Part shown: one piece after another, positions 1,196 through 34,351 of the stretch
How the letters are laid out: each line of letters begins with the position of its first letter
How positions within the stretch are numbered: position 1 is the first letter of the stretch
From: Candidatus Daviesbacteria bacterium
Lineage (GTDB): Bacteria > Patescibacteriota > Microgenomatia > Daviesbacterales > UBA10151
NCBI GenBank assembly: GCA_016187025.1
Contig: JACPKM010000004.1
Span: forward strand, 228,887 to 292,886
Length of the DNA stretch: 64,000 bases
Direction: 5' to 3'
Notes under the pieces: model-generated
Seen by the model: the letters and a program-made list of their open reading frames with translations, nothing else
Database searches by the model: none
Told to the model about the DNA's origin: nothing
Translations under genes and position numbers: made by a program

Positions 1196-1204
1196 ACCAA
1201 AAGA

Positions 1205-6076: not shown

Positions 6077-6106
6077 TTGACAAGGTTTAGCAGTTGTGTG
6101 TACTAT
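6077..6106 (+). promoter_or_regulatory. sigma70-like promoter candidate (TTGACA-18-TACTAT) upstream of pilin gene
   Basis: TTGACA at 6077-6082 and TACTAT at 6101-6106 seen directly in sequence. Lies ~10 nt before ATG at 6117. Confidence 0.35.
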
Positions 6107-6116
6107 TAATTTAGTT

Positions 6117-6605: not shown

Positions 6606-6620
6606 ACCCTTCTTAGGTTA

Positions 6621-7139: not shown

Positions 7140-7179
7140 ATCTCTAGTAACTTAAATTTAAATATGCTACCGTTAATAT

Positions 7180-8239: not shown

Positions 8240-8241
8240 AA

Positions 8242-8871: not shown

Positions 8872-8881
8872 TATTAAAATA

Positions 8882-10778: not shown

Positions 10779-10779
10779 T

Positions 10780-12558: not shown

Positions 12559-12559
12559 T

Positions 12560-12593
12560 GTACAATTTACAATAAACAATTTACAATAAAGTT
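12560..12593 (+). repeat. Direct repeat (ACAATTTACAATAAA x2) immediately upstream of pilM
   Basis: tgtACAATTTACAATAAAcAATTTACAATAAAgtt read directly in the 35-nt gap before the pilM ATG. Confidence 0.3.
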
Positions 12594-13631: not shown

Positions 13632-13635
13632 AATT

Positions 13636-14187: not shown

Positions 14188-14190
14188 TGT

Positions 14191-14886: not shown

Positions 14887-14889
14887 AGT

Positions 14890-15579
14890 TTAAGTTTTTT
14901 GCACTAAATCAGGGCGTACTTTTTCCGTTTTTTCAATAGATTTTTTACCTCTCCACTCTTTTATCAGTTTATGATCACCTGAGAGTAAAATAGAGGGAAC
15001 TGCTAAACCTTCAAAGTTTTCCGGCCGGGTATATTGTGGATGCTCCAACGTGTTGTCAGTGAAAGATTCATTGATTGTTGCTTCCTCTTTTTCTAAAACA
15101 CCGGGTATAAGTCTTGTGACTGAATCAACTATTACAAGAGCAGGAATCTCCCCTCCGGTTAAAACATAATCACCAATGGTAATTTCCTCATCAACGTAGT
15201 TATCAATAAACCTTTGGTCAACTCCCTCATAGTGACCACAAACTATGATGAGATGATCTAACTCTGAAAATTCTTTAGCTTTAGATTGTTTATACGGAAT
15301 GCCGGAAGCAGACATTAAAACAGTTTTTAGTTCGTAGTTTTTAGTTCGTAGTTTGAGAAGCGGTTTTACAGCTTTAGCTAAGATGTCTGCACGGAAAACC
15401 ATACCTGCTCCCCCACCATATGGCCGGTCATCAACTACCTTATGCTTACCTTCACCAAAATCCCGCAAATTAACAAGATCAAAAACTACTTTGCCTTTTT
15501 GCTGAGCTCTTTTGAGAATACTGCTGTTTAAGAATGGTTCAATGCTTTCTGGAAAAAGGGTGATTATGGAAATCTTCAT
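14890..15579 (-). CDS. trmD: tRNA (guanine37-N1)-methyltransferase TrmD
   Basis: MKISIITLFPE...RPYGGGAGMV signature of TrmD (SPOUT fold). Stop is 3 nt from the convergent pilO stop. Confidence 0.9.
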   Translation of the reverse strand: MKISIITLFPESIEPFLNSSILKRAQQKGKVVFDLVNLRDFGEGKHKVVDDRPYGGGAGMVFRADILAKAVKPLLKLRTKNYELKTVLMSASGIPYKQSKAKEFSELDHLIIVCGHYEGVDQRFIDNYVDEEITIGDYVLTGGEIPALVIVDSVTRLIPGVLEKEEATINESFTDNTLEHPQYTRPENFEGLAVPSILLSGDHKLIKEWRGKKSIEKTEKVRPDLVQKT

Positions 15580-17799: not shown

Positions 17800-19818
17800 C
17801 TAGTCAGGCATTACTTCTTTTGCCAAACTGGATAATTTTGCCTGAAGGGGTGGATATTTGTCAAGCGTAGGATCATCAGACAAAATATTTTTTGCAGCCT
17901 CCCTTGTTTTTTCAATTAATGTCAGATCAGAAAATGAGGCTATTTTTAAATCAAACCTGCCTGATTGTCTGGTGCCAAAAATTTCCCCTGCTCCCCTAAT
18001 TTTTAAATCTAGTTCTGCCAATTTTAATCCATCATCAATTTTTTCTAGGTTTTTTAGCCTGCTTATGGCTGATGAGTCAGAGCCTTCAGTAAAAAGCAAA
18101 CAATAAGATTGCTTCTCACCTCTGCCTACCCTGCCTCTTAGCTGATGCAGTTGTGCCAAACCAAACCTTTCAGCAGACTCTATTACCATGATTGTGGCAT
18201 TTGTTACATCAACCCCTACTTCGACAACGGAGGTGGCAACCAGGATATCTATTTTTTTATCTTTAAAACCGTTTAACACTTGCTCCTTCTCTTTTGATTT
18301 TAGTCTTCCATGTAAAATTCCAAGTTTTAGATCAGAAAAAACTTGCTTTTGTAGTTTTTCATACTCATAAGTTGCAGCTTTTGCCGAGGTTAAGGTTTCT
18401 GAAAGCTCAATTAAGGGGGTAATTATGTAAGCCTGATCACCGTCTTTAACTTTTTTTCTGATAAACTCATATGCATCAGTTCGTTTTTTTGATGGAACCA
18501 CATGAGTATTTATCTTTTTCCGGCCTTTTGGCAGCTCATCTATTACTGAGATATCCAAATCTCCATATAAAGTTAAGGCAACAGTCCTTGGAATGGGTGT
18601 AGCAGTAGTTGTTAAAAAATGGGGTAGTTTGCCCCTGCTTCTCAAAACCGTTCTCTGCCCTACCCCAAACCTTTGCTGCTCATCTATGATGACTAAACCT
18701 ACATCTTCGGTAATTAATTTATCTGAGAGTAAAGCATGGGTGCCGATTATCACATCTCCTTTTTCAGATTTTCTGCTTCCTGTATAAATTCCAACTTTGA
18801 TCCCCATTGGCTCAAGCAGTCTTGAAACAGTAGACAGATGCTGAAAAGCCAAAACCTCAGTAGGAGCCATAAAAAGAGTTTTGAGGCTGTTTAAATAAGT
18901 TACATACATAATCACAGCTGCAACAACAGTTTTACCAGAGCCTACCTCGCCTTGTATCAGCCGGTTCATCGGTTGGTTTCTCCCCAAATCATTTAGAACA
19001 TCTTTTATTACTCTTTTTTGAGCAGAGGTTAGCTCAAATGGCAGCCCTTTTATAAACTTTTCTACTTTTTTTATATTGGGGTTTAAAGGTTTGGTAGCAG
19101 GTTTATTTTTCCAGCTCAACCTCATCTTTTGGGTTGCCAGCTGAATATAGAAAAGCTCATCAAAGCCGAGTCTCTCTTTTGCTTTTTGCACATCTTCATA
19201 ATTTTTTGGAAAATGTATTTTGGAAATTGCATCATCTAAATCAAGCATGCTATCTTTAACCTCCTTTGGCAAAGGATCACTGATTTGCTCTTTCACCTTG
19301 GGAAGCATTTGAGAGATTTTTGCTCTTAACCATTTCGAAGTCAGCCCATAAGTTTCAGGATAAACAGGAACCAGTCTGCCAGTATGTAAGGTTGTAGTGG
19401 GTAGTGAGTAGGTTTCAGGTAACTTCTCCCAAACAGGGGCAACTATAGAGATTTTATTTTTGTATTTGCTCACTTTGCCTGAAACCTGTAACCTGTCACC
19501 TGTTTTTATCTGTTTTGTGAGCCAGCTTTGGTGAAACCAGGTTAACTCAATAGGACTGGTGCCATCATTAAAAATTGCCTGAGTAATGATTTTTCTTGAT
19601 CTGGTGAAGATGTTTCTAATTGACCAAATTTCGCCCTGTAAGGTCACTTTTTCACCTACTTTAGCATCTAAAGCACTAGATACATTGGAAAAATCATCAT
19701 ACCTAAAAGGGAAATGATAAATTAGATCTTCCAGAGTATAAAGGTTTAGCCTCTCTAGCTTTTTTGCAGTTGTGTACCCGATTCCTGATATTTGACTTAG
19801 CTGAAGCTTTAAATCCAT
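17800..19818 (-). CDS. recG: ATP-dependent DNA helicase RecG
   Basis: N-terminal wedge domain, Walker A GEVGSGKTVVA, DEQQRFGV (DExH), motif VI QLHQLRGRVGRG. 672 aa. Confidence 0.9.
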   Translation of the reverse strand: MDLKLQLSQISGIGYTTAKKLERLNLYTLEDLIYHFPFRYDDFSNVSSALDAKVGEKVTLQGEIWSIRNIFTRSRKIITQAIFNDGTSPIELTWFHQSWLTKQIKTGDRLQVSGKVSKYKNKISIVAPVWEKLPETYSLPTTTLHTGRLVPVYPETYGLTSKWLRAKISQMLPKVKEQISDPLPKEVKDSMLDLDDAISKIHFPKNYEDVQKAKERLGFDELFYIQLATQKMRLSWKNKPATKPLNPNIKKVEKFIKGLPFELTSAQKRVIKDVLNDLGRNQPMNRLIQGEVGSGKTVVAAVIMYVTYLNSLKTLFMAPTEVLAFQHLSTVSRLLEPMGIKVGIYTGSRKSEKGDVIIGTHALLSDKLITEDVGLVIIDEQQRFGVGQRTVLRSRGKLPHFLTTTATPIPRTVALTLYGDLDISVIDELPKGRKKINTHVVPSKKRTDAYEFIRKKVKDGDQAYIITPLIELSETLTSAKAATYEYEKLQKQVFSDLKLGILHGRLKSKEKEQVLNGFKDKKIDILVATSVVEVGVDVTNATIMVIESAERFGLAQLHQLRGRVGRGEKQSYCLLFTEGSDSSAISRLKNLEKIDDGLKLAELDLKIRGAGEIFGTRQSGRFDLKIASFSDLTLIEKTREAAKNILSDDPTLDKYPPLQAKLSSLAKEVMPD

Positions 19819-19955
19819 TACGGGGATATTTTACTATAGATTGGTTTGCTACGGGGTTACTAATAACTAAACAAGCTAGTAATTCGGGTTTTATTTGGTA
19901 TAAACTGGAGTAAGCAGTTGATGCTATAATTCGAGCAAAGCGAGAATCCTAAAAT

Positions 19956-20350
19956 ATGCTTCCCAATAGAGTTTATTGTTATGTTGATGAAAGTGGCCAA
20001 GATACTGAAGGTGAAATCTTTCTATACTAACAATTGCTAAAACAGTTTTTGCCATTAAAGACTATAAAGAGCACAGATTTATTGTTTTAGTAGATGGGTT
20101 AGGTAAAAAGGATCAAAAATATTATGGTTCAGAGCTTAGAAAACTTGGTGTTCCCTCAAGGGAGGTAAAAGGAGTAACGAGAGATCAAAGTGATGCCTTA
20201 ATAAGGCTTGCTGATAGCATAGCTGGTTTTGTTAGAGATGTAATTGAGAGTAAAGATAAGGATAAGCAGAGCTTGCAAGATAAATCTTTTAAAAAGCTTG
20301 AATCGCTTTTTGAAAAGGCGGTTGATGATAACATACTGGTTGAGGTTTAG
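19956..20350 (+). pseudogene. Frameshifted/truncated DUF3800-family remnant
   Basis: Frame 1 MLPNRVYCYVDESGQDTEGEIFLY then stop at 20028-20030. Out-of-frame continuation ...IVLVDGLGKK...DALIRLADSIAGFVRDV...*. YVDESG N-terminal and LADxxAG C-terminal motifs match DUF3800 but total length is under 60% of typical. Confidence 0.45.
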
Positions 20351-20353
20351 GCC

Positions 20354-20379
20354 ATAAAAAACCCCCTATTGCTAGGGGG
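20354..20379 (-). terminator. Rho-independent terminator (minus strand)
   Basis: Perfect 7-bp stem CCCCCTA/TAGGGGG with 4-nt loop (20362-20379), preceded on + strand by ATAAAAAA, i.e. a U-tract after the stem on the minus strand. Downstream of the island operon/recG fragment. Confidence 0.5.
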
Positions 20380-20498
20380 AGCAGCCTAGTCCTTCGATTT
20401 CTCTCAGAACAGCTCACCTGTACGATTAGTCTTCGGCTGAACTTTAAATAAATCCTACCACAAAACTTTATCTTTGTCAAAAAAAACATTCTTTTGTG

Positions 20499-20720
20499 TT
20501 AAGCGAAGTTTAAATTTCTAATTGACCAAATTTCGCCCTGTAAGGTCACTTTTTCACCTACTTTAGCACCTAAAGCACTAGATACATTGGAAAAATCATC
20601 ATACCTAAAAGGAAAATGATAAATCAAATCCTCAATAGTGTTTAAACTAAAGAAGCTTAGTTTATAGGCAAGGAATGATCCGATACCTGAGATTTGAATT
20701 AGAGTAGTTTTGAGATCCAT
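20499..20720 (-). pseudogene. Duplicated 5' fragment of recG (codons 1-~70), truncated
   Basis: Encodes MDLKTTLIQISGIG...EDLIYHFPFRYDDFSNVSSALGAKVGEKVTLQGEIWSIRN then stop. nt 20516-~20632 are near-identical (1-2 mismatches in ~115 nt) to recG nt 19614-~19730. More 5' part diverged. Confidence 0.6.
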
Positions 20721-20756: not shown

Positions 20757-22670
20757 TCAGGTGTTCTTGACTTTTTTGAAGTCAAAAGCTAGTTTCTTAC
20801 CTTGAGTAATCTGAAAACCAGATACTTCCCATCCAGGAGTTTTTTCTGTGAGCTTTTCTTTAATAATTCTATTTAAATTGGCAACATAACCTTCTATCTC
20901 TCCCCTTTTTAATTCAGCAATTCCTAAGTTTCCTACATGATGATTTTTAACACTTACTCCTCCTGAAGAATCATTTACAAGTTCAACATCAAATGTCGTA
21001 TCTACATTTACAGTTCCAAAAAAGGTTTTTTTCTCTGCATGGACTCCAGCAGAAATAGCCAGTCCTCCTTCAGGCGTAAACTGGTATTGAGGATTTAAGA
21101 TGCGACCATTTGCTGGAAGTGGTAACGTTTTAACATAATCTACAAGTCTGTCAACTCCTGCAACAATTCTTTGTCTTTCAGATCTACTTCCTCTTAATGT
21201 TTCGTTTAATTGATCTATCAGAGATACTCCTGGTTTAGGAGTAATTTCTGTGGTATGTACTTGTGGAACAGCAGGTTTTTCGCTCTTAGTTGGTGGAAAA
21301 GATGGACCCTTGTTTTCTGATATTACAGGTTTTGGTTGTAGATTATTGCTTGGCCTCAATATTACTGCGGGAGATAAGGTTAGTCCGTAGTATCTAATTA
21401 TATCCTGAACGGATTTATATACAGCTCGACCAATACTTGGATCAACAATTTGCACTTCTAAGTTTCCATCACTTGTTCTTCTTACTCTACGTCCAGGTAA
21501 TATAAAGCCTATTCGTCCTGTTTCAACACCTCTTGGACCAATAGTACAGTCATTAATAGGTAAAATTGCTACTGCTCCTTCTTCAACGTTTTGAAGTATA
21601 TCTGCAAGGGAGTTTGTTTCTCTAAATCTTATCTCAGGTGCTTGTAAAGATAATGCGGAAAGTAACTCCTTTATACTTCCACCTCTTTGATGCTCCGTAG
21701 CATATCTACTACCTCCAAGTGCTGCGATCAAAGCACCTTCAGCATGTCTAGAGTGATTAAACCCTTCTCCTAGAAGATGTCTTATAGCATTTTCAGCTGA
21801 AGCAAACACAGAGCTGTCCATTCCAAAAGGATCTGCCTGCGTTCTAATATTTCGTACAGGTTGAGGTTCACGTAAATGCATTAATCTTGGATATCTTTGC
21901 CTGACATCCTTCTCAGCTTCGCGAAACCTCATGAGAGTTTTATCATCAAAATTAAATCCTCTTTCTCTTGCTTCATTCCCCATCCTTGCAAGTTCATTTT
22001 CTAGAACCCTATCAAGTACCCTCCCTGAGTTTGGTGATCCAGAAGGAGTTTTAGTGTCTTTTTTTCCTTCTTTTTGTAATATTCTGGCTTGTTTTAGATA
22101 TACCCACTGTGAACCATAAATTACTGTGGCTGCCTCATCTATTGACTTTGCATATTCTGACTTTACTTTTTCTCTATCTTGAGGTTTATTAGCCTGCTCA
22201 ATTGTCTTTAAAAATCTTTGTGACATTTTTTCAAATTCTAAAGCTGTAGGATAATCTCTTGCTACTCTGTATATATCTCTTGGTACCAGCTGATTTTCTT
22301 GAGTAATATCTCCTCTTCTGGTGGCAAATGAGACCACTCTTCTTAAATGTCTATGGTCTGCATCTTCTCCTTTGAATCTATCAAATACAGCCACTGGATT
22401 TTCTCTATCAGATTGAGCATCAACAGGAGTGGGAATAACAGCTAACAGTTGTCTTAAATCTTTATCACCTATACTACCTGATACCAGTCCTTGATGGTAC
22501 TTATCTTTCTCATCAGTAGTTACATCTACTTTATCCAAAAGTACCAATCTTGGATTTCCTCTGACAATTGAGGCTACTATTTTATTTTGACGTCTAATAT
22601 TAGGGATAGGTTCTTGTTGGGCAACCATTAATGAAGCTGATATTTCAGATGAGTGTTCTGTACTTGCCAT
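20757..22670 (-). CDS. Lineage-specific protein: N-terminal shared domain A (~190 aa) + unique C-terminal region
   Basis: Residues ~25-215 (RRQNKIVASIVRGNPRLVLLD...YGSQWVYLKQARILQKEGKKDT) are paralogous to the N-terminus of 24237..25565 and the C-terminus of 25735..27741. Start set at MAS (22670). No signal peptide. Confidence 0.6.
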   Translation of the reverse strand: MASTEHSSEISASLMVAQQEPIPNIRRQNKIVASIVRGNPRLVLLDKVDVTTDEKDKYHQGLVSGSIGDKDLRQLLAVIPTPVDAQSDRENPVAVFDRFKGEDADHRHLRRVVSFATRRGDITQENQLVPRDIYRVARDYPTALEFEKMSQRFLKTIEQANKPQDREKVKSEYAKSIDEAATVIYGSQWVYLKQARILQKEGKKDTKTPSGSPNSGRVLDRVLENELARMGNEARERGFNFDDKTLMRFREAEKDVRQRYPRLMHLREPQPVRNIRTQADPFGMDSSVFASAENAIRHLLGEGFNHSRHAEGALIAALGGSRYATEHQRGGSIKELLSALSLQAPEIRFRETNSLADILQNVEEGAVAILPINDCTIGPRGVETGRIGFILPGRRVRRTSDGNLEVQIVDPSIGRAVYKSVQDIIRYYGLTLSPAVILRPSNNLQPKPVISENKGPSFPPTKSEKPAVPQVHTTEITPKPGVSLIDQLNETLRGSRSERQRIVAGVDRLVDYVKTLPLPANGRILNPQYQFTPEGGLAISAGVHAEKKTFFGTVNVDTTFDVELVNDSSGGVSVKNHHVGNLGIAELKRGEIEGYVANLNRIIKEKLTEKTPGWEVSGFQITQGKKLAFDFKKVKNT

Positions 22671-22779
22671 AATTATGTATTTTAACATAAATTATAGGAT
22701 AGATCTATCTAGTTAAGAACAAAACCTAACCAATATCAAACCTATAACACTTGACAAAAGGGCATTCATATTCAAGCTC

Positions 22780-24234
22780 CTACTGAATTGAAGAGGTGAC
22801 TGTAGTAGATGGTTCGCCCCTACCCAGTAATTTGTTTTTGACTAATTTTCTAATGGATTGCCAATATTTGTTTACTCTATCAGAAGTATAAGGATCTCCT
22901 CCATCTGGAATGAGCATATGTTGAGGTAGAAATCCGTTTTGAGCTTCATCTCGAATACTTTCTACCTGCATCCCTCTTACATGCTGGAAATTTACAATAT
23001 TATGTGCTCTGTTTACACCTCCGTCCCCCCAATAAGGGTCATGTATGATTATTTCTTTTTGAGGATCTGCTTCTGGTATTGTTGTATCGACATTACTTCT
23101 ATTAAGAAGTAGCTCTTTGGCAAGCCCTAAACCTGAAAGGCCAATAGTGAACAGATTTCCTAAATTTCCCATACCTACAGATAAAAGATTTCTATCAAAA
23201 TCCGGTTGCATCATTCCTTGATCAATTTCTGTTTGCATAAGGTCATAGAGTTCTTTTACAAAAAAGTAATTCTCCTTCACCTTTGATTGAAGCTTTTTTA
23301 ACAAAGCCTTAACCAGGACATTTTTACGATAACTTCTTTCGTCCTGTTTACCATCGGGGTTTTCATCCTCCGCCAGAATAAACCTCATTGCTGTTAAAGT
23401 ATCCATCTGCTGAGGACCGGCTTTAATAAGTTTTGGACCATATTCTTGACCACCTAGTTTAAAGGGTCCAGTTAGGTGATCTTTTTGCACCTGCACATCT
23501 AAAGGACCAACTTTATCCAAGAGATCTCTGATTACTGTATCTTTTATAACCATCTGGTAATCTATTGCCAAACCTGTGGCTTCTTCCACAACTTCTCGAA
23601 CTTGATCAAACTTTCCTTCACGATAAACATGACGCATATACATAGTTTGCACTCTTCCATCACTTTGTCTTTTTTCTAAATTCGGTGTTCTTATATCGCG
23701 GCTTAAAGATACTGACCTGATTTTTCCAGTTTTCAAATCATAAGAGATGACTGTAGGTGATCCACCATAGTTTGCATAACTTTCTCCATGCTCTTCCCAA
23801 TATACCCATAAAACTGCATTAACTGTGTTGTCGCTAAGTTCCTTATCAACCCTTTTACTATATTCCGGATCGTTTCTTTCTCTTTCTGCTCTTTTGCGGT
23901 ATGCCTGTTCAACAAAAGGTTTTAGGAGTTCATTAGTAAGTTTTACTTCTTTAACTGGTGGTTTAGTTGGTTCAGCAGTAGCGGTTGGAGGTAGTGGGGG
24001 TTGATCTCCTTTTGAAGGTATATTTGTAGGGGGAAAATGCTGATTTGATTCTACTCGAGGAGTTCGCAATAATCCTGGAACTAGTAAAGAGGCGAAACCC
24101 GCAGCGACAGCAGCACCACCACCCAATAAAAATCTTCTCCTGGAAGCATCCGGAGGGATAGCTCCAGATTCACCGAGTCTTATGAAATTAACTTTTCCTC
24201 CTAAAATTGGATCTATTTCAGATATTGGTTCCAT
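22780..24234 (-). CDS. LytR-CpsA-Psr (LCP) family protein with twin-arginine-type N-terminal signal/anchor
   Basis: SRRRFLLGGGAAVAAGFASLL (S-R-R-x-F-L motif + hydrophobic h-region). LCP-like blocks: VISYDLKTGKIRSVSLSRDI (cf. ...VSIPRDT), GLAIDYQMVIKDTVIRDLLDKVGPLDV (cf. IDYY..GF..IVDAVGGVDV), DTLTAMRFILAEDENPDGKQDER (cf. ALAFTR.R..D..GDF.R). Confidence 0.6.
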   Translation of the reverse strand: MEPISEIDPILGGKVNFIRLGESGAIPPDASRRRFLLGGGAAVAAGFASLLVPGLLRTPRVESNQHFPPTNIPSKGDQPPLPPTATAEPTKPPVKEVKLTNELLKPFVEQAYRKRAERERNDPEYSKRVDKELSDNTVNAVLWVYWEEHGESYANYGGSPTVISYDLKTGKIRSVSLSRDIRTPNLEKRQSDGRVQTMYMRHVYREGKFDQVREVVEEATGLAIDYQMVIKDTVIRDLLDKVGPLDVQVQKDHLTGPFKLGGQEYGPKLIKAGPQQMDTLTAMRFILAEDENPDGKQDERSYRKNVLVKALLKKLQSKVKENYFFVKELYDLMQTEIDQGMMQPDFDRNLLSVGMGNLGNLFTIGLSGLGLAKELLLNRSNVDTTIPEADPQKEIIIHDPYWGDGGVNRAHNIVNFQHVRGMQVESIRDEAQNGFLPQHMLIPDGGDPYTSDRVNKYWQSIRKLVKNKLLGRGEPSTTVTSSIQ

Positions 24235-24236
24235 AA

Positions 24237-25565
24237 TTATCTTAATTTAGGTAATCTTATACCTAAGAATTTAGATCTTGCCGGTTTTGGCGATAAATCT
24301 AAAAGAATCTTTGCGCAGTAGCTTAAAGCTAATAATTTACCATTTATCTCAGGTGTTGGAGCATAGCCCCTCCTACCTACATTTTGTGTATATTCATAGA
24401 TATCTTTATAAACTTCTCTGTCAGCAAAAGGCTTGGTCCTGGGATGCTGCATCCTGGAATTAATATGGTTAACAATTAAGTTTGCAAGACTCGCCTTTTG
24501 GCTTATTGTAAGAGTAGTATCTCTAAGAAAGGTTGAAGACAAATGTTGATAGACTCTACGAACCAGATCTGATGATAAATTAGTTAAATTTCTGGCAACA
24601 TTGGGCCAATCTGAGGCCAGGCCTTGAAAAATAAAGGTTAACTCTGGATTGGAAAGAGCTGTAAAATTTCTTCTATTTTCTTCTGTGTCGAAAAATAATG
24701 GCCTGGAAAAATAAAGTCCTAATTTTACCCGAAGCAATGAACGTTGTTCTGGTGTTAGACTCATAGTTTGAGTTGTGTGATCCACAAGCGATTCAATCAT
24801 GGAAGCTACAGTTGTAGCTTCTGCAGGTTGAAGGTCGGGAACCGGGTTTATATTTACTATGTCTGCTTCAGCGGGTTTTAAGACTATCTCGACATCTGGT
24901 GCTGCAACAACTTTTACCTTGGCTGCTTCAGTGTCTTTCCTTCCTTCTTTTTGTAATATTCTAGCTTGTTTGAGATAAGTCCATTGGCCGGCATAAATAG
25001 CTTGTCCGATAGTATCAAGTGTACCGATATACTCTAGCCTAACTTTTTCTCTATCTTCTGGCCTGTTTGCTTCTGAAACAGCTTTTAGTACTTGTGGAAT
25101 TACTTGTTCAAAATCTAAAGCAGTAGGTAGTTTTTCAGTTACGGCATAAAGATCTGATGCTTTGATTTGGTCTTGTGGAGTGATGCTTCCTCTGGTAATA
25201 AAGGCTACCGCTCTTCTCATGTGTCGTTGTTGGAAACCATCTCCCTCAAATCTTGCAAACAAATGTACTGGATTTCTACTATCTGGTGCAGCTTGAACAG
25301 CTGTCGGTAATATGGATACAGCTTTTTTAAAGTCTATTGCAGCTATAGTTCCTTCTCTAATACCTTTGGCAAAGTTTGCTCTTTCATAATCGCTTATTGG
25401 TACTACATCAGGTAATAGTAAACGGGGATTGCCGCGCAATACAGCTGCAATTATTTTATCTTGTCTTCTTGGATTAGGCTCTAGTCTTTCAGGGGGTAAT
25501 AAAGTTATTGAAGAGCTATCAGTTCCTAAAGGATTAGATGAATTACTTTCTGCTGCCTCTGCCAT
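24237..25565 (-). CDS. Lineage-specific protein: N-terminal shared domain A + unique C-terminal region
   Basis: RRQDKIIAAVLRGNPRLLLPD...YAGQWTYLKQARILQKEGRKDT domain A (aa ~30-215). C-terminal 220 aa unrelated to 20757 gene. Start 3 nt after LCP gene stop. Confidence 0.6.
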   Translation of the reverse strand: MAEAAESNSSNPLGTDSSSITLLPPERLEPNPRRQDKIIAAVLRGNPRLLLPDVVPISDYERANFAKGIREGTIAAIDFKKAVSILPTAVQAAPDSRNPVHLFARFEGDGFQQRHMRRAVAFITRGSITPQDQIKASDLYAVTEKLPTALDFEQVIPQVLKAVSEANRPEDREKVRLEYIGTLDTIGQAIYAGQWTYLKQARILQKEGRKDTEAAKVKVVAAPDVEIVLKPAEADIVNINPVPDLQPAEATTVASMIESLVDHTTQTMSLTPEQRSLLRVKLGLYFSRPLFFDTEENRRNFTALSNPELTFIFQGLASDWPNVARNLTNLSSDLVRRVYQHLSSTFLRDTTLTISQKASLANLIVNHINSRMQHPRTKPFADREVYKDIYEYTQNVGRRGYAPTPEINGKLLALSYCAKILLDLSPKPARSKFLGIRLPKLR

Positions 25566-25734
25566 ACTTTAATATTATTATCTGGAGAGTGAAAAATACA
25601 ACAATTATCTTTTCAAAGCTCGTATATTAAGTATAATTGCTCTTGTTACTAGATCAGGTTTCTGATTGGTACCCTCAGTAGCTTTTTGAGTGTGTCTTCC
25701 TTGCTTTTTCATTCTCCACTCAGGATAGTGTTGA

Positions 25735-27741
25735 TTATTTTCCTTGTCGCATTTGTTGCTCTAATATTCTGGCTTGTTTGAGATAGACCCATTGTGAGCC
25801 ATAAATTGTCATACCAACCTTATCTAAAACACTAACATACTCTAATCTAATCCTCTCTCTATCTTCTCGTTTATTTGCTTGCTCAACTGCAAGTAATAGC
25901 GTTGGTATTGTTTGCTCAAAATTAAGGGCAGTTGGAAACCGTTTTGCAAAAAAAGCAAGATCTGCAGCGGTTATTTGATCATGAGAGGTAAGATTACCTT
26001 TTGTCACATAAGAAACAATTCTACGCATCCTCCGAGCATCATCCGTAGCTTCCTTAAATTTAGCGAACAGACTTACTGGGCTTTCTGGATCTTTTTCATA
26101 TGCTAAAGAAGTTCGAATAACTTTAATCATATTTAAATACTGTGTTGATCCAATAACACCATCACGAACTCCCTTTTGGAAGAGTGCTCGCTCTGCTTCT
26201 GAAACGACAACTTTATCAACCAACACAAGACGATGATCTCCCCTTACAATCGCTGCAATTATTTTATCTTGTCTTCTTGGATCCGGAGAAGTATTTAGCT
26301 CAACTTGTGATTGTTCAGATGGCTTTTGTCTTACTTGGGATTCCCCTGTTTTGGTAGAGGATGGTAATTGGGGGCCTTGATTCCATGAGTCCATATAAAC
26401 GGTTGCCATATTAGTTTCGCCCCTTTTTATTGACTCTTGCATTCTTCTAGATCTTTCTATAAATCTGCTCATGTCTGTAATTACTATCCGGCTTCCGTGG
26501 ATATCTTTAGGGTCTCCTATGATTGTATATTGAATACCAACCATTTCTAGGTGAGTTCTATAAAACCAAGAATTCTTGCCCAAATGTTCTCCTTCCTCGT
26601 AGCCATTAATCACTTTATTTAATATTTGAGTTATTTCCGCTTTAAGTTGCTCTACCTTTGCTGGATTAGAATAATCAAACATGGGGAACTGATTTACATC
26701 TAAAGCCCTCATCTTAGCTTCTGCAGATGTATCACCAAATGGAATCTGTCTTCCTTGGCCTTCTAAATAGCTGCTTAATCCCCGCCTATTATTTGTGATT
26801 AATACTGTTCCATCACCGGCATATCCGAGTGTTCCTTTTGCTTTTCTTAGTGATCGTATTGTTTTCCCAGTCCATTCTTGTTCTCCTGTTTTTAGCGCAG
26901 AAGGGTAACCTCCAATCGCAGAGTAAATCGATGACTTCATTACAGAGTTTGCCCCAAATAAGTTTACATTTCCATTAATAAAACCACGTTTATCAAGCAG
27001 ATTGACAAATTCTGTTTTAGCATGAACAGCTGGAAATCTGGTAAAGGATTGAGGATCAAATAAAAGGTTTCCAACAGCACCTTCTTTATCAGGATGTTCT
27101 CTAAAATATTTTAAATATTCTTCTAGGTATTGTGGATTTAAGCCCTCACAATCAGCATCGTTACTCAGTAGTAATATATCCTTATAAACTCCCGCATTTT
27201 CTGTTCTTATTAGTGCAAGATCAGTTTGAATTTTTCTAATATTCCCAATCTTTACCTGCTCGTCTGGTAAGGTTGCTGCCACTAAGCGAATATTTAACCT
27301 AGGGAAAGTTTTTCCAGCACGTTTCACTTCTACAACAGTGGCTTTGTATGCGTCTTTTTTACTCTGCATTTGGGATTCAGGAGCGTTCACAAAAACGATT
27401 AACTCAAATTTTTTTGAGTCTAGTGTTTGTTCAGAGTAAAGTTTTAATGTCTTAAATATATTCCTTGCTTCTTGTATACCAGCAACCGGTATACAAACTA
27501 CGGCTTCTGTTTCAGGACGCATGCTTTTACCAATTTGACTATCTAGTCTTTTCAGTTGTGCTAAGTATTTTGGATCCTGTCTTTGTAGGTAACTTCTTCT
27601 TTCTGTGACCGGGTCTAATTTAGCATTTGGATTTTGTAATAATGTCGGAGAGGCAGCTACTCGATCAACTAAACTTACTTGTCTTAAGGTAAATGGGTTA
27701 TCAGGTGTGGATATGATATCTGCTGTTGGATCTTGGTCCAT
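25735..27741 (-). CDS. GT-A-like glycosyltransferase-domain protein with C-terminal domain A
   Basis: aa ~78-430 paralogous to the giant protein region aa ~1310-1710 (AVVCIPVAGIQE..., DxD-like SNDADC, GANSVMKSSIYSAIGGYP, EEGEHLGKNSWFYRTHLEMVGIQY). aa ~487-668 = domain A (PRRQDKIIAAIVRGDHRLVL...SQWVYLKQARILEQQ). Confidence 0.6.
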   Translation of the reverse strand: MDQDPTADIISTPDNPFTLRQVSLVDRVAASPTLLQNPNAKLDPVTERRSYLQRQDPKYLAQLKRLDSQIGKSMRPETEAVVCIPVAGIQEARNIFKTLKLYSEQTLDSKKFELIVFVNAPESQMQSKKDAYKATVVEVKRAGKTFPRLNIRLVAATLPDEQVKIGNIRKIQTDLALIRTENAGVYKDILLLSNDADCEGLNPQYLEEYLKYFREHPDKEGAVGNLLFDPQSFTRFPAVHAKTEFVNLLDKRGFINGNVNLFGANSVMKSSIYSAIGGYPSALKTGEQEWTGKTIRSLRKAKGTLGYAGDGTVLITNNRRGLSSYLEGQGRQIPFGDTSAEAKMRALDVNQFPMFDYSNPAKVEQLKAEITQILNKVINGYEEGEHLGKNSWFYRTHLEMVGIQYTIIGDPKDIHGSRIVITDMSRFIERSRRMQESIKRGETNMATVYMDSWNQGPQLPSSTKTGESQVRQKPSEQSQVELNTSPDPRRQDKIIAAIVRGDHRLVLVDKVVVSEAERALFQKGVRDGVIGSTQYLNMIKVIRTSLAYEKDPESPVSLFAKFKEATDDARRMRRIVSYVTKGNLTSHDQITAADLAFFAKRFPTALNFEQTIPTLLLAVEQANKREDRERIRLEYVSVLDKVGMTIYGSQWVYLKQARILEQQMRQGK

Positions 27742-27779: not shown

Positions 27780-30700
27780 CTATTTGAGTTGATTATAGGC
27801 GTTAGATAAATCTATTAACATTTGATCAGTAGTTTGGTATCTATTTCTTGGTTCTGGATCAAGCCCCTTAATAAATATTCTTTTAATACTATCAGGTATG
27901 TTTGCTGGAATTTCAAATCTTCCATTCGTATGGGCTTCATATTCTCTTTCTAGTAATCTTTGCGTTGATTCACCTTTAAATCTTGGAACATTAAATGGGA
28001 AATTACCAGTCATTAACTTATATAGCAATACTGTTAATTCATAGGTATCGCAGCTTAAAGTAACATTAGGGTTTTCTCTAAAAAGTTCTGGAGGTCTAAT
28101 ATGTCTATTTCCTCCTACAAACCCTCTCCTAAATTTCCCCCCGGTACCTTTAATGCTACCTGCATCAAAGTCGATTATTTTTATACCTTGCTCGCCCAGT
28201 AGGATATTAGAAAGTGCAATATCAAGATGTACAATACCTGCATTATGAAGCTCTCTTATAGTTTCTGCAATTTTTATAGTAGTAGCAATTGCTTGCTGGG
28301 GTGGTAAAGACCTATTTGTCGCAAAGTAATGCTCTAAATCAGTATTTTGAAGTGGATAAATTTTAATGATTTCGTCACCGTTATCAATTTCATCTATAAA
28401 AGTACCAAATGTAGGGCTTGTTGTTTGTGCCTTGATTATTGTTTCTAGATCTTTTACTCCATCTGGATAACGATTTGCTTTTGCAATGTATTCTCTTTCA
28501 CTCTTTTTTACCCTTTTAAACGACAAAATCTGTCCAGTTGTTTTATTGTATCCTGCAACAATTTGTCCCATTTGACCTGATCCTAAAGGTTTATCTAAAC
28601 AAACCACATAATCACCAAATTCTTGAATTTGCGTGCTCTCCTTTAGCTTTTCTAGATCATACTTTGGAGCAGTTGTTGTAGGTATAACTACTGGGTTTTC
28701 CTTATTAAACTGATCCAAAGCGTTATCCGCTTCTGCTTTTTCTGCTAACTCACGTTCTTTTCTTGTGATATCCAAGTTTTCTAGTTCTTTTTGGAATTCA
28801 TCCTCAAGTCTGGTAAGCTCAGCCAAAGTTTCTGGAGTTCCTTTACCTGCTTTTATATCTCTGAGTAATACTCCAATCTTTTGATAGTGTTTTAATCCTC
28901 TAACTAAAACATCCATATTTATTATAACCACATTACCATTTACTACTTTGTACTGGATTCCCGACCATCGTAGTGCACGTTGGTAATATTCAGAGTCCTT
29001 GCCAAGTCTTTCGCCATGTTCGTAAATATCAAGTGTTTTATTAATAACTGTCTCCAATCCTTCTTTGAATTTAGCAAGTTGAGCGGGATCATCGTAATTA
29101 ATATTTTCTCCTTCCCCAAGTTGCATTCTTCTGATTTCATCATCGAAGGCACTGAATTCTTTTTGCCATTGATCTAAAGGAACAATTCCATCCTTGATTG
29201 CGGCTATGGCTCGTCTGGCTGATGTGTATAGCCTGGATACTCTTGTTCCCGCGAAGGTAACTCTTTTATGGTCCTGTCGACCTTCAATAATTCCCCAGCC
29301 AATCGCAATATCTTCCCCGCCTTCAGAACCTGGTAAATAACCACCAATAGCAGCATAAATACTTCCACGAAACGCAAAGTTTGCTCCACTTGAAGGCATT
29401 CGCCCGCTGCGGTGGCGACCAATTACGGCTAAATTCTGAAACAAACGCGTACCAATATGTAATAGTGGATATTTAATATAAGCTTCCGGATCCCAATCGA
29501 GTTGACCCAGCATTCCATCTACTTGCGGGTTTTGTTCAAACTTCTGAATGAAGTTACTTAAATATGTTGGAGCAATACCTTTGTTATCTGCATCGTTACT
29601 TATTAAGATTATATCTTCTGCTTTAGGACCTCTCTGATATTGCCTAAAAAGTGCAATATCATTTAAATACTTTCTGATAGTGCCAATGTTTGCCTGCTTT
29701 ATAGGGAGCGCTTTAACTACCACTCTAATAGGCACATCAGGATGATCTTTTCTAAATCGTTCTATTTCTGATAAGGTGTTATCGGGTTTGACTGGTTCTC
29801 CTTGTTTATCAGTTTGTGGGTAATTTACAAAAAGCAAGATCTCATATTGGTCCTTAGAAGCATCCTGAGGTAGATAATTTGCCAAAGAGTTATAAATATT
29901 TCCTCCTTCTTGATGTCCTGCTACCGGAATACAAACTATAGCCTTTAAGTTCACCGAAGGTTCTTCTTTAATCTGTCCTGTTAACTGTTTTATTTCTTGA
30001 TAATATGCTGGATTCTGCTTTTCAAAATACATCTGTGCTTCTTGGTATGAATTTAGTTTTGCATTGGGGTTTTGCTTTAATGTTTTAGATCTATTTTTTG
30101 CTAAGATTTTCAAAATTTCCTCTCTTGGCCTGCCTCCATAAAGAGAGCCAGGAGGTATAAGTCTTTCTTCAAATGGTAGAGGGTGATATGGGGCAAAAGG
30201 GGTTGCCCAGAGCTTATCTGCAGGTATTTCTGCTGGTAAAGGTGGGATATATTTAATTGCTTCAGGCGGGGTAAGCTTAAACCCTTCGTGAGGCGGTCTG
30301 GGCTCAGGAATAGGAATTGCCTCCCCCGGAATAGTAGTTGGAATCTTTTGAACTTCCCCCGGACCAACTGTTGTTGAAAGTATAGTTCTTACCATGGATC
30401 CATCCGGCCTTTTTTCAACATGCGCAACCTCAATAAATTCTACATTCTGAAAGTTTCCCCATTTGTTCCTAATGGGATTTCCATTTTGATCCAGATTAAA
30501 TAAAGCTTTTGTTAAAGGAGAGTTAGCATCTAAATTAAGTTTTCCCTGCATAAGCTCCGGATGGGTTTGGGCATTAATTACCACTACTTGTCTTGCCTCA
30601 TCAGCTGCATGATCAGGAGTAATTAAAATCTCAAAATTTCGATAACCATTTTGAGAAATATCTTTTGCAAGCCTGCCGTATTGTGAATCAATGGAAAAAT

Positions 30701-33700
30701 CCCAGTTTACCCCTCTTTTTCCATCAGGCAGAAGCTGTGATCTCATCTGGGAAAAGTCCAGCTCAACTTGTCCATCTTTTACCCTGTGATGAAATTGCAG
30801 TTCTTTGCCGTCTATTCCAATTATATTGCCAGTATCCTTACTGCCTGCTGGTCTGCCGTCAGCAAATCTTCTTATGGTGTCGTTATCATGCCAAAGATCA
30901 CGTCTGGCCCGGTCTACCTCCCCAATTTCTTTATGTTCTCTTATAAAACCAAAAAAATCTTTATCAACAATCTTATCGGGACTTTTCTCATATCTTATTC
31001 CAGGAGGTGTTTCAAATTGCTTAGACTCAATTGCCCATCCTTCTGTTTTGAGCCTGGATTGGACACTGTCCCAGTTAACATTTGCATTAGCCGGATCCTG
31101 CGGGTCAAAAGACAAAGCTCCTTCCTGGTCAAAATGGCCCACAATCCAAGCATTATCAGGGCTTTTTATATCAGGGTTACCCAGAAAAATAGAAACAGAG
31201 CCACGGTCTTTGTTCAAATCCACAATTGAGCTTCCGTGGATAAAAGTTAAGTCCTGCTCCGGTGAGCTGGCAAAATTCTTAATCTTTTGATGAATATTAA
31301 AATCAGGGTTATCATAGATTTCTCTTGTCCATCCTGTATCAGTTACTAAATTTTTAATTTTTGGATCAAGGCTGGCTTCAGCTCCTGAAATAACCAGTGA
31401 GCCTTCTGAGGTAACCCTCACCGGAGGACCGGCAATTGTCTGCCCGGTAGCCCTGTCTATAAAATGTGCATTGTGCCCATTATCCGCTCCATAGTTTGTT
31501 GCTAAAGTCAGATCATTGTTAAGGTCGTAATTTTTAGGATTATCAAAAGTTTGTTTGAAAGTATCCCTTGCTAATCCAGGTGCTCTTGTAGGTGTCCACC
31601 TGGTTTCAAAAAAGCCCCTTCCATCCATCATGTTTTGAACACCCCTGACAGCCAGTCCTCCTGCAAATCCTAAGGTAGATGCAAAAATTGTTGCTCCAGC
31701 TGCCTGGCGGACTCTGTAGTTTCTTGCTGCTCCATTTTTTGCTCTTTTGTCATCACTGATTTCCTGGTCAACAACATCAAATTGCTCTGACAGTAAAGTA
31801 TTAAGTTGTGCCGCATCTGTAATCTGGGACCTTAACTTTTGCTCAAGCCTTGCTGCAGCATCAACCAACTGAGCAACTTCCTGATCTGCTAAAACATAAT
31901 TTTTACCGTAAGTTATATACTCACTTTTTTCTCTTCTTCCTCTAATAAGTCTTACTCTAATTTCCTGCATTCTTCTTGCTACTTCTTGCTGGTTGGTCGT
32001 GTTGGATAAATCCAATGTGAGTAATTGATCAACTCCCGCTTGGAGATGATTTTGACCTCCGCCATCAAGCAGTTGCTTTGCAGAAAAGGTTTGGTAGCGG
32101 GATCTTTCCATATCCCGCCTTCTTTCTGTACCACGCAGTCTTCCCCATAGCCCTCCATTTGCCTGCATATCAGGTACTGTTCCACCTAAAGCAACCTCTG
32201 CTGCATGCATTTTTTGCTGATGTGCGACCTCTCCTAGTCTTCTTAACCCTACAACTCCTCCTCCTGCAACCGCACCAAGAATTAATCCTCCTAATGGTCC
32301 TGCTAAAGCTGTGCCTCCAACTACAGCGCCTATCCTCACCCCGCCATTTGCAGCTTTTAGCAGCCCATCTGCCCCCAGCGAAACCGCTGCTCCCACAAAC
32401 AGAGGGTTTAGAATTGTTCCTGCCAGCAGACTGTCGCCGCCCTTTACTAAACTTTCAGCCCGTCTTCTTCTTGCCCAGGCAACAGTTTTATCTGTGGCTG
32501 TGAGGTTTTCGGTATTACCGGCAAATCTTGCATTTGCAAGCCTTATGGTGACATAAGCATCAATTTGGTCAGCTCCTTCCTGGTGTTTTGCCAGATTATC
32601 TTTGAGCTTTAGCCCCATTTCCAAAAGATCTGTTGCAAAATAATCAGCAATCTGCCCAAAACTTTCAGCTTGATTACCAAATAGTTGCCTGATTAAAGGA
32701 TTATCCATATTGTTTTGGACAAACTGAGTTAACTGCCTTCTAACATCTTCTTTTCTTTGTCTAATTTCAGCTTCATTTTGAGGAACATTACCAGTAACAA
32801 TAGGGGTAAGGATGTCTTTAATAATTTTGCCTCTTAAGTCATTTTGTTCAGGAGTGTTTTTATCTAGTGTAATAATTTGCTCTCCATTTAGAGTTTGATT
32901 TGCTTTTAATCTGCCCAACACTGCTTGCTGTTGCGCATCGGTACTGTGTCTTAGATCATTTAGTCTTTGTGCAGCTTCTTGAGAGAGGCCTCTCACTGGA
33001 GAGCCATCAAAAAATGATTTTCTCATCTTTTCGTACATTAGATTAACCGCTCCACCTCTGCCGAGTCTTACTCCTATCATTGAGGGAATTCTCCAAATAT
33101 CCCTCCAGCCTTTAAACTTCAAAAACTTTTCTACCTCTTTTTGTGCGTCCAGGTGCAAAACTTTTTCAATAACGTCTGTATTTCTGGTAATATTTATTTC
33201 AACCTCTCTTTGTTCTGGCTGAGAAGATGGAGATGGTTCTACTCCTGGTCTTCCTGGGGTGTCAACAGGTGCAGGAGCTGCAGCAGGTGCGCCGCCTGGA
33301 GCAGAAGCTGCAGGAGCTGGGGAGGGGGCAGCAGGCTGTTTGACAGGTTGCAGAGTATCTGGATCAACCAGCTCCCTTCTTGCCTCCAATGCAGGCTTGG
33401 CAACCTCAAGCCAGTCTTTATCTGGTTCTCCTCTTTTTCTGGAATCCTGATATGCAAAATACGCCTCTTGTTGTAAACGGGCTTTAAATTGTGGACTTGA
33501 TTCATCGTGAGCATCAGGATGCACCTCTTTATAAGCCTTACTGCTTGCTTTTAAAACTTTAATTGCATTTTGAATTTTCTTCCTCTCATTTTTATTAGTT
33601 GTAAAAAGAGCTTCCTCGTTTAACAGTTCAAGAAGCCCGTCAATCGGAACACCCTCACTTTGGCTGAAAGCTTGCCCTGTTTGGGGATCTGTAAAGTTGT

Positions 33701-34010
33701 TTGTAAAACTAAACCCGCCCTTTGCGATATCAGCTTTATTTTTAGGATCAGGTTGATTGCTGCTATCCGGGTGGGGTGCAAAAGCGCCTTGGATAGCTTC
33801 ATAAGCATGTCTTGCCTTGTTTATCTTACCTGTTTGATTGGGGTCTGCAAGCAAACTTGGGTTATTTAAAAGCCCCTCAATTTTTGTTAGTCCAAAACGT
33901 AGAGCATTTTTGACTTGTTGCCGGCTAGGAATTTCCGGGGTGTTAATTTTACCAGGATGACTTTCTATATCTTGAACTGAGACAGGGTTTTCTGTTGGTT
34001 GGCCGTTCAT
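27780..34010 (-). CDS. Giant (2076 aa) multidomain protein: Pro/Ala-rich linker, glycine-zipper hydrophobic segments, GT-A-like domain, C-terminal Ser/Thr protein kinase-like domain
   Basis: Pro/Ala-rich aa ~221-267 (nt ~33210-33350, locally GC-rich). Gly-rich hydrophobic aa ~528-589 and ~769-790 (GAAVSLGADGLL...GAVAGGGVVGL). GT-A-like aa ~1355-1580 (AIVCIPVAGHQEGGNI; ILISNDADN DxD). Pro-rich linker aa ~1222-1290. Kinase aa ~1795-2076: LGSGQMGQIV G-loop, LSFKRVKK, HNAGIVHLDIALSNILL catalytic loop, IIDFDAG (DFG-like). Confidence 0.7.
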   Translation of the reverse strand: MNGQPTENPVSVQDIESHPGKINTPEIPSRQQVKNALRFGLTKIEGLLNNPSLLADPNQTGKINKARHAYEAIQGAFAPHPDSSNQPDPKNKADIAKGGFSFTNNFTDPQTGQAFSQSEGVPIDGLLELLNEEALFTTNKNERKKIQNAIKVLKASSKAYKEVHPDAHDESSPQFKARLQQEAYFAYQDSRKRGEPDKDWLEVAKPALEARRELVDPDTLQPVKQPAAPSPAPAASAPGGAPAAAPAPVDTPGRPGVEPSPSSQPEQREVEINITRNTDVIEKVLHLDAQKEVEKFLKFKGWRDIWRIPSMIGVRLGRGGAVNLMYEKMRKSFFDGSPVRGLSQEAAQRLNDLRHSTDAQQQAVLGRLKANQTLNGEQIITLDKNTPEQNDLRGKIIKDILTPIVTGNVPQNEAEIRQRKEDVRRQLTQFVQNNMDNPLIRQLFGNQAESFGQIADYFATDLLEMGLKLKDNLAKHQEGADQIDAYVTIRLANARFAGNTENLTATDKTVAWARRRRAESLVKGGDSLLAGTILNPLFVGAAVSLGADGLLKAANGGVRIGAVVGGTALAGPLGGLILGAVAGGGVVGLRRLGEVAHQQKMHAAEVALGGTVPDMQANGGLWGRLRGTERRRDMERSRYQTFSAKQLLDGGGQNHLQAGVDQLLTLDLSNTTNQQEVARRMQEIRVRLIRGRREKSEYITYGKNYVLADQEVAQLVDAAARLEQKLRSQITDAAQLNTLLSEQFDVVDQEISDDKRAKNGAARNYRVRQAAGATIFASTLGFAGGLAVRGVQNMMDGRGFFETRWTPTRAPGLARDTFKQTFDNPKNYDLNNDLTLATNYGADNGHNAHFIDRATGQTIAGPPVRVTSEGSLVISGAEASLDPKIKNLVTDTGWTREIYDNPDFNIHQKIKNFASSPEQDLTFIHGSSIVDLNKDRGSVSIFLGNPDIKSPDNAWIVGHFDQEGALSFDPQDPANANVNWDSVQSRLKTEGWAIESKQFETPPGIRYEKSPDKIVDKDFFGFIREHKEIGEVDRARRDLWHDNDTIRRFADGRPAGSKDTGNIIGIDGKELQFHHRVKDGQVELDFSQMRSQLLPDGKRGVNWDFSIDSQYGRLAKDISQNGYRNFEILITPDHAADEARQVVVINAQTHPELMQGKLNLDANSPLTKALFNLDQNGNPIRNKWGNFQNVEFIEVAHVEKRPDGSMVRTILSTTVGPGEVQKIPTTIPGEAIPIPEPRPPHEGFKLTPPEAIKYIPPLPAEIPADKLWATPFAPYHPLPFEERLIPPGSLYGGRPREEILKILAKNRSKTLKQNPNAKLNSYQEAQMYFEKQNPAYYQEIKQLTGQIKEEPSVNLKAIVCIPVAGHQEGGNIYNSLANYLPQDASKDQYEILLFVNYPQTDKQGEPVKPDNTLSEIERFRKDHPDVPIRVVVKALPIKQANIGTIRKYLNDIALFRQYQRGPKAEDIILISNDADNKGIAPTYLSNFIQKFEQNPQVDGMLGQLDWDPEAYIKYPLLHIGTRLFQNLAVIGRHRSGRMPSSGANFAFRGSIYAAIGGYLPGSEGGEDIAIGWGIIEGRQDHKRVTFAGTRVSRLYTSARRAIAAIKDGIVPLDQWQKEFSAFDDEIRRMQLGEGENINYDDPAQLAKFKEGLETVINKTLDIYEHGERLGKDSEYYQRALRWSGIQYKVVNGNVVIINMDVLVRGLKHYQKIGVLLRDIKAGKGTPETLAELTRLEDEFQKELENLDITRKERELAEKAEADNALDQFNKENPVVIPTTTAPKYDLEKLKESTQIQEFGDYVVCLDKPLGSGQMGQIVAGYNKTTGQILSFKRVKKSEREYIAKANRYPDGVKDLETIIKAQTTSPTFGTFIDEIDNGDEIIKIYPLQNTDLEHYFATNRSLPPQQAIATTIKIAETIRELHNAGIVHLDIALSNILLGEQGIKIIDFDAGSIKGTGGKFRRGFVGGNRHIRPPELFRENPNVTLSCDTYELTVLLYKLMTGNFPFNVPRFKGESTQRLLEREYEAHTNGRFEIPANIPDSIKRIFIKGLDPEPRNRYQTTDQMLIDLSNAYNQLK

Positions 34011-34012: not shown

Positions 34013-34351
34013 CTAGTTTGTAACTGGTGTAGAAATAACTGTATTCCCAAGATATAAATCCCTAAAATCCAACATAGCTTTGGCAAACACATCCTCTGAG
34101 TTGGGAATTTTTTCTTTTAAGAATTGTTGAATTTCTTGTTGTGGCCTTTTTTGGTCCACCATTTGGCTGAATTGGTCTAAATGTTCAGGGGGCAAATTAT
34201 CCAAAATAGTTGTAGACAGGAAATTATCAAGTCTGACATATAAATCATCGATTAGCTGCTTGTGCATATTCCCGTCTGCAGCAGTGATACCTGCCTCTGT
34301 TAATAGATTGTCTAAATAGCCCCTAACTTCTGGTGGAATTTGGTTATCCAA
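34013..34351 (-). CDS. Small acidic protein translationally coupled to the giant gene (candidate chaperone/adaptor)
   Basis: 112 aa, acidic, helical-looking. Its TAG stop is separated by 2 nt from the giant gene ATG (TAG-ta-ATG). 250-bp AT-rich putative promoter region upstream. Confidence 0.5.
   Translation of the reverse strand: MDNQIPPEVRGYLDNLLTEAGITAADGNMHKQLIDDLYVRLDNFLSTTILDNLPPEHLDQFSQMVDQKRPQQEIQQFLKEKIPNSEDVFAKAMLDFRDLYLGNTVISTPVTN

Follow-up and report, generated by a model that had tools for sequence, protein, structure and literature searches.

Three copies of domain X in a Daviesbacteria operon

We analyzed a 64-kb stretch of contig JACPKM010000004.1 (64,000 nucleotides, hereafter the window) from Candidatus Daviesbacteria, which belongs to the Microgenomates group of Patescibacteria (Candidate Phyla Radiation, CPR). 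The window carries an operon of six co-oriented minus-strand genes (DUF5663, giant, g668, g442, g484 and g643), three of which encode a domain of about 185 residues that we call X. All three copies lie within long minus-strand open reading frames (ORFs), and their limits were set by an iterated family hidden Markov model (HMM):

22047..22604, minus strand: domain X copy 1, N-terminal, residues 29-213 of g643; family HMM i-E 4e-58
24927..25478, minus strand: domain X copy 2, N-terminal, residues 30-213 of g442; HMM i-E 1e-49; the copy used for the AlphaFold2 (AF2) model
25738..26286, minus strand: domain X copy 3, C-terminal, residues 486-666 of g668 (a protein of 668 residues); HMM i-E 1.5e-53

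A preliminary description of this DNA had proposed three colinear copies of a domain of about 190 residues, N-terminal in two genes and C-terminal in a third. The HMM limits essentially match its coordinates, and both the colinearity and the placement were borne out (59 invariant positions, 43-48% identity, E of the order of 1e-44 to 1e-57). A MAFFT alignment of the three segments is colinear over 191 columns, with 47% and 43% identity to the first copy, and the three regions also align significantly by BLASTP: g442 matches g643 with 47% identity over 185 residues (E 1e-56), and searches against a small local database matched g442 to g668 at 49% (E 5e-57) and g643 to g668 at 43% (E 1e-44). These alignments place the homology of the three copies far beyond chance. 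At the DNA level, conservation is confined to short stretches, such as one of 72 nt (74-81%) at the 3′ end, indicating that the copies are old paralogs rather than recent duplicates. No fourth copy was found within the window. Beyond X, BLASTP detected no similarity between g643 and g442, in line with the earlier claim that the segments downstream of the two N-terminal copies differ.

With a pI of 9.5-9.8 and a net charge of +5 to +8, the window copies are unusually basic; the median pI of the family is 5.7. Electrostatic pairing of basic X with the acidic DUF5663 protein was considered and rejected, as the basic charge is not kept in the X domains of P0003 and P0004, which come from the other two loci with a giant operon.

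Domain X lacks a described relative

The AF2 model of the g442 copy is confident (predicted local distance difference test score 96.9, predicted template modeling score 0.90) and consists of 11 helices, with no fold neighbor in the PDB. Neither Pfam-A (2025) nor NCBIfam (2026) gave a match on X in five window proteins, no Pfam family recurred in more than two of 36 diverse X segments scanned at E<=1, and profile searches against PDB sequences returned nothing credible. Searches of phage and plasmid collections by tblastn gave no match, no LXG or other trafficking-domain match to X was found, and RsbU_N matched in neither sequence nor fold. In the literature searched, DUF5663, PP2C in Patescibacteria and domain X likewise went unmentioned. 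Judged by sequence profile and predicted model, X matches no described family or solved structure in the libraries tested, which agrees with the earlier remark that it bears no assignable motif.

Conserved positions in X are mainly hydrophobic or aromatic, with few polar exceptions. The latter comprise R-Q-Q-x-K-I-I in helix 1, an Asn, a Lys and E-Y, and the last two helices carry a conserved Y-G-K-x-x-E-Y-x-x-Q...L..E-A. HMM positions Y147, Y159, G160, K161, E164 and Y165 are conserved at 74-98%, and no position holds a conserved Cys, His or Ser.

The X family combines one domain with many partners

Word-indexed homolog searches with the 3-copy and 36-sequence alignments returned nothing, and an exhaustive HMM search, run over 1.84 billion cluster representatives, was needed to recover relatives. 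It yielded 162 at E<=1e-3, 50 at E<=1e-10 and 6 at E<=1e-30. Family counts rest on the 149 proteins confirmed by the iterated model among the 150 listed of these 162; P0103 failed that model, so the initial member set held at least one false positive.

In 144 of the 149 proteins X starts no later than residue 100 (median start residue 32), and in the remaining 5 it starts further on; it is C-terminal in 2, one of them g668, which is identical to family member P0002. Tandem copies occur in 14/149, and 42/149 consist of X alone, some of them being fragments. Transmembrane (TM)-like segments were seen in 2/149.

C-terminal extensions of at least 70 residues were present in 97 proteins. The largest group (n = 37) is a single domain family of about 340 residues without assignment, which we call C1; approximately 29 extensions are PP2C phosphatases and 5 are EDR1/CTR1-type transglutaminase-like peptidases, with the others made up of modules resembling A-type glycosyltransferases (GT-A-like), small groups and many singletons. 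Metagenome loci add further X-PP2C genes, one reversed PP2C-X arrangement and one gene in which X is joined to a J-domain, a match seen once and below the Pfam gathering score (25.6 against 27.8 bits). Single-member Pfam matches to WH2, Ski7, MRPL52 and stonustoxin were not used. Against the case, considered in the preliminary description, of a known ubiquitous fold with one fixed partner, X matches no PDB fold and has several partners.

Domain order is also variable. In P0004, X is followed by a glycosyltransferase (GT)-like part, in g668 the GT-like part precedes X, and the two GT parts are 52% identical, which indicates that domain order changed between close relatives.

C1, exemplified by residues ~200-541 of P0012, is conserved and beta-rich and carries, among others, the motifs RSYYRSNSQG.WRYLPDY and WYGKGY.EES.TLP. 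Its model is confident, yet no Pfam family, PDB sequence match or PDB fold relative was obtained for it. In the X-C1 model, the last helix of X extends into a long connecting helix.

Approximately 40 of the 149 proteins, from the PP2C and C1 classes, have a conserved leader before X (for example P0108, P0032, P0056, P0129 and P0150). It occupies the N-terminal 20-60 residues, opens with an amphipathic-looking M[GS][LIF]F.RF.. and bears [NSG]W[DE]S[LM]..V.F 15-30 residues further on; the window copies are without it. The M[GS][LIF]F.RF start resembles, as we take it, the amphipathic membrane-targeting helices of Noc and PspA, and the leader could be a membrane-targeting or docking motif.

These architectures bear on two alternative functions. 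X might be an enzyme of a new type, to which the strong conservation of the six polar or glycine positions named above and the existence of 42 proteins formed by X alone would lend support. We consider this very improbable, as X is a small all-helical domain without a conserved Cys, His, Ser or Asp triad, resembles no enzyme fold and is itself fused, as a rule, to recognizable catalytic domains. X might instead be a sensory or allosteric regulator that, on binding a phosphorylated partner or small ligand, switches the attached enzyme on or off, comparable in function to RsbU_N and unrelated to it. PP2C is the strongest named association (~30 representatives), Ser/Thr kinases are encoded beside X genes both in the window and at a related locus (L004, below), conserved R, K and Y positions are concentrated in helix 1 and the last two helices, tandem duplication is common among sensor domains, and in the X-C1 model the last X helix continues as a long connecting helix. 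Set against this, X stands alone in more than a quarter of the family (fragments included), and a J-domain and the unassigned modules are not obvious allosteric targets; such a sensor appears possible and somewhat doubtful.

The DUF5663-giant-X operon

The remaining features of the operon, in order from its first gene, are as follows:

34013..34351, minus strand: DUF5663 small acidic protein, the operon's first gene; Pfam DUF5663 E 1.7e-11; pI 4.4
27780..34010, minus strand: giant 2076-residue protein; conserved N-terminal ~1280 residues, then a GT-A-like module, then a predicted Ser/Thr kinase
25735..27741, minus strand: g668; GT-A-like domain, low-complexity linker and X; NCBI hypothetical protein HYW42_04545, Candidatus Daviesbacteria
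26434..27651, minus strand: GT-A-like module of g668, residues 31-436; paralog of giant residues 1308-1711
24237..25565, minus strand: g442; X plus a unique C-terminal region of 229 residues
22780..24234, minus strand: g484; predicted membrane-anchored LCP (LytR-CpsA-Psr) glycopolymer transferase, encoded between two X genes
20757..22688, minus strand: g643; X, then a middle region, then a C-terminal module
20772..21344, minus strand: C-terminal module of g643, residues 449-639; the same module ends the L008 giant

Upstream of the DUF5663 gene are a -35-like TTGACA and also an AGGAGG of Shine-Dalgarno type. Intergenic gaps measure 169 nt (g668-g442), 2 nt (g442-g484) and 91 nt (g484-g643), and an ORF listing with a minimum of 60 residues held no immunity-like small ORF after the window X genes. 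No TM segment or signal peptide was seen in any of the three window X proteins.

The giant has TM-like segments at residues 527-589 and 770-788, and its C-terminus is assigned as a Hanks-type Ser/Thr kinase by a profile above cutoff (PF00069 Pkinase, residues ~1805-2061, E 1.4e-25, 90.6 bits against a cutoff of 31.7). A hidden X copy was not found in it (hhalign probability 0.2). Residues 31-436 of g668 and 1308-1711 of the giant share 33% identity (E 5e-66), after which the giant continues into the kinase and g668 into X, so that X sits in g668 where the kinase sits in the giant, as had been proposed. At only ~33% identity, the two GT modules appear to be ancient duplicates and not exchangeable cassettes; DNA repeats between the two genes are limited to 21-30 nt at 78-82% identity.

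Across 14 relatives of the GT-A-like module, NDAD and G.N...Y..IGGY are invariant. Pfam support is weak (Glyco_transf_7C at E 4e-4, in 3/14 members; Glyco_tranf_2_3 at 0.022), and no PDB sequence match was obtained. Elsewhere the module forms stand-alone proteins of 430-460 residues and is also found fused to a kinase.

g484 is assigned to the LCP family by a profile above cutoff (Pfam LytR_cpsA_psr, 47.1 bits, cutoff 24.6) together with a predicted N-terminal membrane anchor (one TM-like segment, residues 34-56); its score with NCBIfam TIGR00350 (36.2 against a cutoff of 62.3) marks it as a divergent member. The C-terminal region of g442 has no Pfam or PDB match and no relative in any set compared. 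For g643 no Pfam or NCBIfam match and no TM segment were found, nor any PDB match to residues 215-643. Its C-terminal module aligns with residues 1701-1869 of the L008 giant (BLASTP, 29%, E 1e-14) and is 60% identical to P0143.

The order DUF5663, giant, X protein(s) is common to three loci, namely the window, L004 and L008. DUF5663 orthologs with 44-53% identity precede the giants in L004 and L008, and homology among the giants covers their N-terminal ~1280 residues. The window giant is 46% identical to that of L004 over 852 residues (the GT and kinase region) and 25% identical to that of L008 over 1369 residues. Their enzymatic C-terminal parts differ: GT-A-like module plus kinase in the window and L004, a Glyco_transf_9 region in L008. 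In the latter (positions 479-9064), ORFs of 199 and 773 residues match internal parts of the locus's own giant. By sequence comparison, then, C-terminal modules of the giants recur as diverged copies in downstream ORFs (g668, the g643 C-terminus and the L008 ORFs).

The 3′ side of g643 adjoins a recG fragment. The 5′ end of recG is duplicated (19613-19737 and 20515-20639, 125 nt, 94% identity, 902 nt apart), which suggests an insertion or rearrangement at the recG site. The fragment itself is an ORF for a recG N-terminal part (20499-20720, minus strand, 73 residues), situated between g643 and intact recG (17800-19818). Between the recG copies, 19955-20300 (plus strand) holds the remnant of an interrupted ORF with no Pfam match; a DUF3800-like identity for it was discarded for want of Pfam support. 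A GC-rich hairpin followed by a T run, resembling a terminator, lies at ~20350-20390 (minus strand).

Elsewhere in the window are housekeeping genes and, at ~5100-14900 (plus strand), a type IV pilus cluster with prepilin peptidase, PilM and a weak, below-cutoff PilX-like match. A 1091-residue CARDB/PA14 protein is encoded upstream of this cluster, at 1205-4480.

Genomic neighborhoods and a possible delivery role

A scan of GTDB genomes produced one locus with an X relative, a first metagenome scan none and a second 15 loci. Outside the window subfamily, X genes are solitary among housekeeping genes and have no conserved neighbor, save for synteny in three closely related genomes (UDG, tmk, tdk, X-PP2C, hisS) and a recombinase. 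The latter is a large serine recombinase within five genes of X (L009 8224-9897, L015 3-1529, L022 13143-14699; two of these loci are closely related). Pfam Resolvase/Recombinase matches were obtained only for the L009 gene, to which those of L015 and L022 are tied by BLAST. Its proximity to X hints at occasional mobility.

The one GTDB representative genome with a relative is a metagenome-assembled genome (MAG) labeled Gammaproteobacteria. At its locus L001, X (298 residues) and an EDR1/CTR1 peptidase-like domain reduced to its C-terminal half (136 residues) occupy adjacent, separate ORFs (9926-11245). This pair reflects an assembly error or else a P0005-like gene that has been split or frameshifted. 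The label of the MAG looks doubtful, given a contig of 37% GC that is rich in hypothetical genes.

Genes resembling a type IV secretion system (T4SS) were seen at two loci: PrgI, TraC-like and VirB4/TraG genes ~4 kb downstream at L008, and a DUF87/TraG-like ATPase ~7 kb from X at L010. None was found among the window ORFs scanned or at seven other loci. The window ORFs scanned, a subset, also contained no WXG100 or FtsK/EssC-type gene, and the only secretion-type genes found among them, those of the type IV pilus cluster, lie at a distance of over 5 kb.

These neighborhoods bear on a question raised in the preliminary description, namely whether X is a delivery or trafficking module with toxin partners and immunity-like neighbors. 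On this reading, X would be the delivery domain of secreted, polymorphic-toxin-like effectors, guiding payloads to an export route formed by a Patescibacteria T4SS-like system or by the giant. Several features are consistent with it: the mostly N-terminal position of X ahead of highly variable C-termini with many singletons, payload types that resemble host-directed effectors, modules common to the giant's C-terminus and downstream genes, the T4SS-like genes near L008 and L010, the conserved W[DE]SL..V.F leader of ~40 members, and the small acidic DUF5663 at the head of the operon, whose size and charge may be those of a secretion chaperone. However, the gaps between the window genes hold no immunity-like ORFs, no toxin domain was found among the identified partners, and the window X proteins have no signal peptide. 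X can also be tandem, at either end or mid-protein, most loci are core-genome-like without nearby secretion genes, the window offers only a distant pilus cluster among its scanned ORFs, X has no LXG or other trafficking-domain match, and the 33% identity of the GT paralogs speaks against exchangeable cassettes. Delivery is, in our judgment, unlikely. The domain-shuffling part of the earlier reading stands in the varied positions (PP2C-X and X-PP2C, X-GT and GT-X), the many unrelated C-termini and the CPR source organism; the toxin and delivery part is not supported.

X as a possible docking or regulatory module

The reading we favor, which we regard as plausible and propose tentatively, gives X an intracellular role as a docking or regulatory module that does not itself catalyze. 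Binding rather than catalysis, cytoplasmic action and the identity of the partner are points that we infer. Interaction and regulatory modules typically vary in position and number, which terminal export signals do not, and the tolerance of X for any position and for tandem duplication argues for such a module. So does the partner set, in which the named members are enzymes with protein or polymer substrates and a J-domain, in its own right a device for recruitment, and so do the lack of immunity-like ORFs after the window X genes and the core-genome-like character of most loci. The paucity of TM or signal-like segments (none in the window X proteins, 2/149 in the family), the recurrence of the operon in three loci and the reappearance of the giants' C-terminal modules in downstream genes are further support, as are the largely hydrophobic or aromatic character of the conserved positions and the amphipathic-looking leader of ~40 members.

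Under this docking model, X would tether or regulate the fused enzyme by way of one shared partner, which may be a protein or some structure of the cell. Applied to the Daviesbacteria operon, the model has X docking a GT-A-like putative glycosyltransferase and two proteins with other C-terminal modules onto the giant membrane-anchored GT/Ser-Thr-kinase protein, onto DUF5663, or onto both. The outcome would be a membrane-proximal complex that modifies proteins or glycopolymers, with the LCP transferase encoded alongside.

Several points weigh against a docking or regulatory role. The giant and DUF5663 are not a general partner of the family, since no neighbor is conserved outside the window subfamily. 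Nor does the basic charge of the window copies give a clue to the partner, as P0003 and P0004 do not share it. A set of phosphatase, peptidase, glycosyltransferase, J-domain and nearby kinases is also typical of effectors that symbionts direct at their hosts, and CPR bacteria are presumed episymbionts. The conserved polar cluster of X could be a small-molecule or catalytic site. Finally, taxonomy is established for the window only, and one X-carrying MAG bears the Gammaproteobacteria label.

A broader version of the recognition idea is that X belongs to an undescribed, possibly CPR-only, protein-modification network. X would then either dock PP2C, kinases, glycosyltransferases and peptidases to one hub in a phospho-dependent or partner-switching manner, or target the episymbionts' host-directed effectors for export, with DUF5663 and the giant as receptor or translocon. 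We think it rather improbable.

CPR genomes are small, their lineage-specific proteins are mostly unannotated, and little is known of how these bacteria regulate themselves or deal with their hosts. The present analysis yields a delimited domain family with a confident model, a repertoire of partners, and a recurrent operon whose giants have swappable enzymatic ends. The X family itself is solid and well delimited, and its function is what we infer. Together, these results open a way, in uncultured bacteria, to the study of Ser/Thr signaling and of how the envelope is modified, or else of effectors, and both X and C1 could be defined as new families.

Comparison with known systems

The N-terminal trafficking domains of polymorphic toxins, such as LXG of type VII secretion (Zhang et al. 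2012, PMC3482391), are one parallel in architecture. X shares with them a helical N-terminal domain of about 200 residues, variable C-terminal modules and related modules encoded nearby. Unlike them, X has no LXG or Pfam match, immunity genes or toxin partners, can be tandem, internal or C-terminal, and in most loci has no linked secretion system. On the marks of a polymorphic toxin system, no immunity gene was found 3′ of the window X genes and no near-identical recombining cassettes were seen; the identified partners (PP2C, EDR1/CTR1, GT-A-like, J-domain) are not toxins, and the others, without assignment, may include one.

J-domain proteins and other fusions of an adaptor with an enzyme offer a second comparison, in that their targeting domains are recognition modules that bring a generic activity to a particular client or site, and one locus encodes X followed by a J-domain. 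The difference is that this match falls below the gathering score and occurs once only.

A third parallel is the N-terminal kinase-recruitment domain of RsbU (RsbU_N; PDB 1w53), a small, all-helical, non-catalytic domain that lies N-terminal to PP2C and binds a partner protein. X, too, is helical, and PP2C is the partner most often named with it; it differs from RsbU_N in having no sequence or fold match to it. X, C1 and the DUF5663-giant-X operon are absent from the sources searched, and the logic they appear to follow, a modular recognition domain joined to variable enzymes, is a known one.

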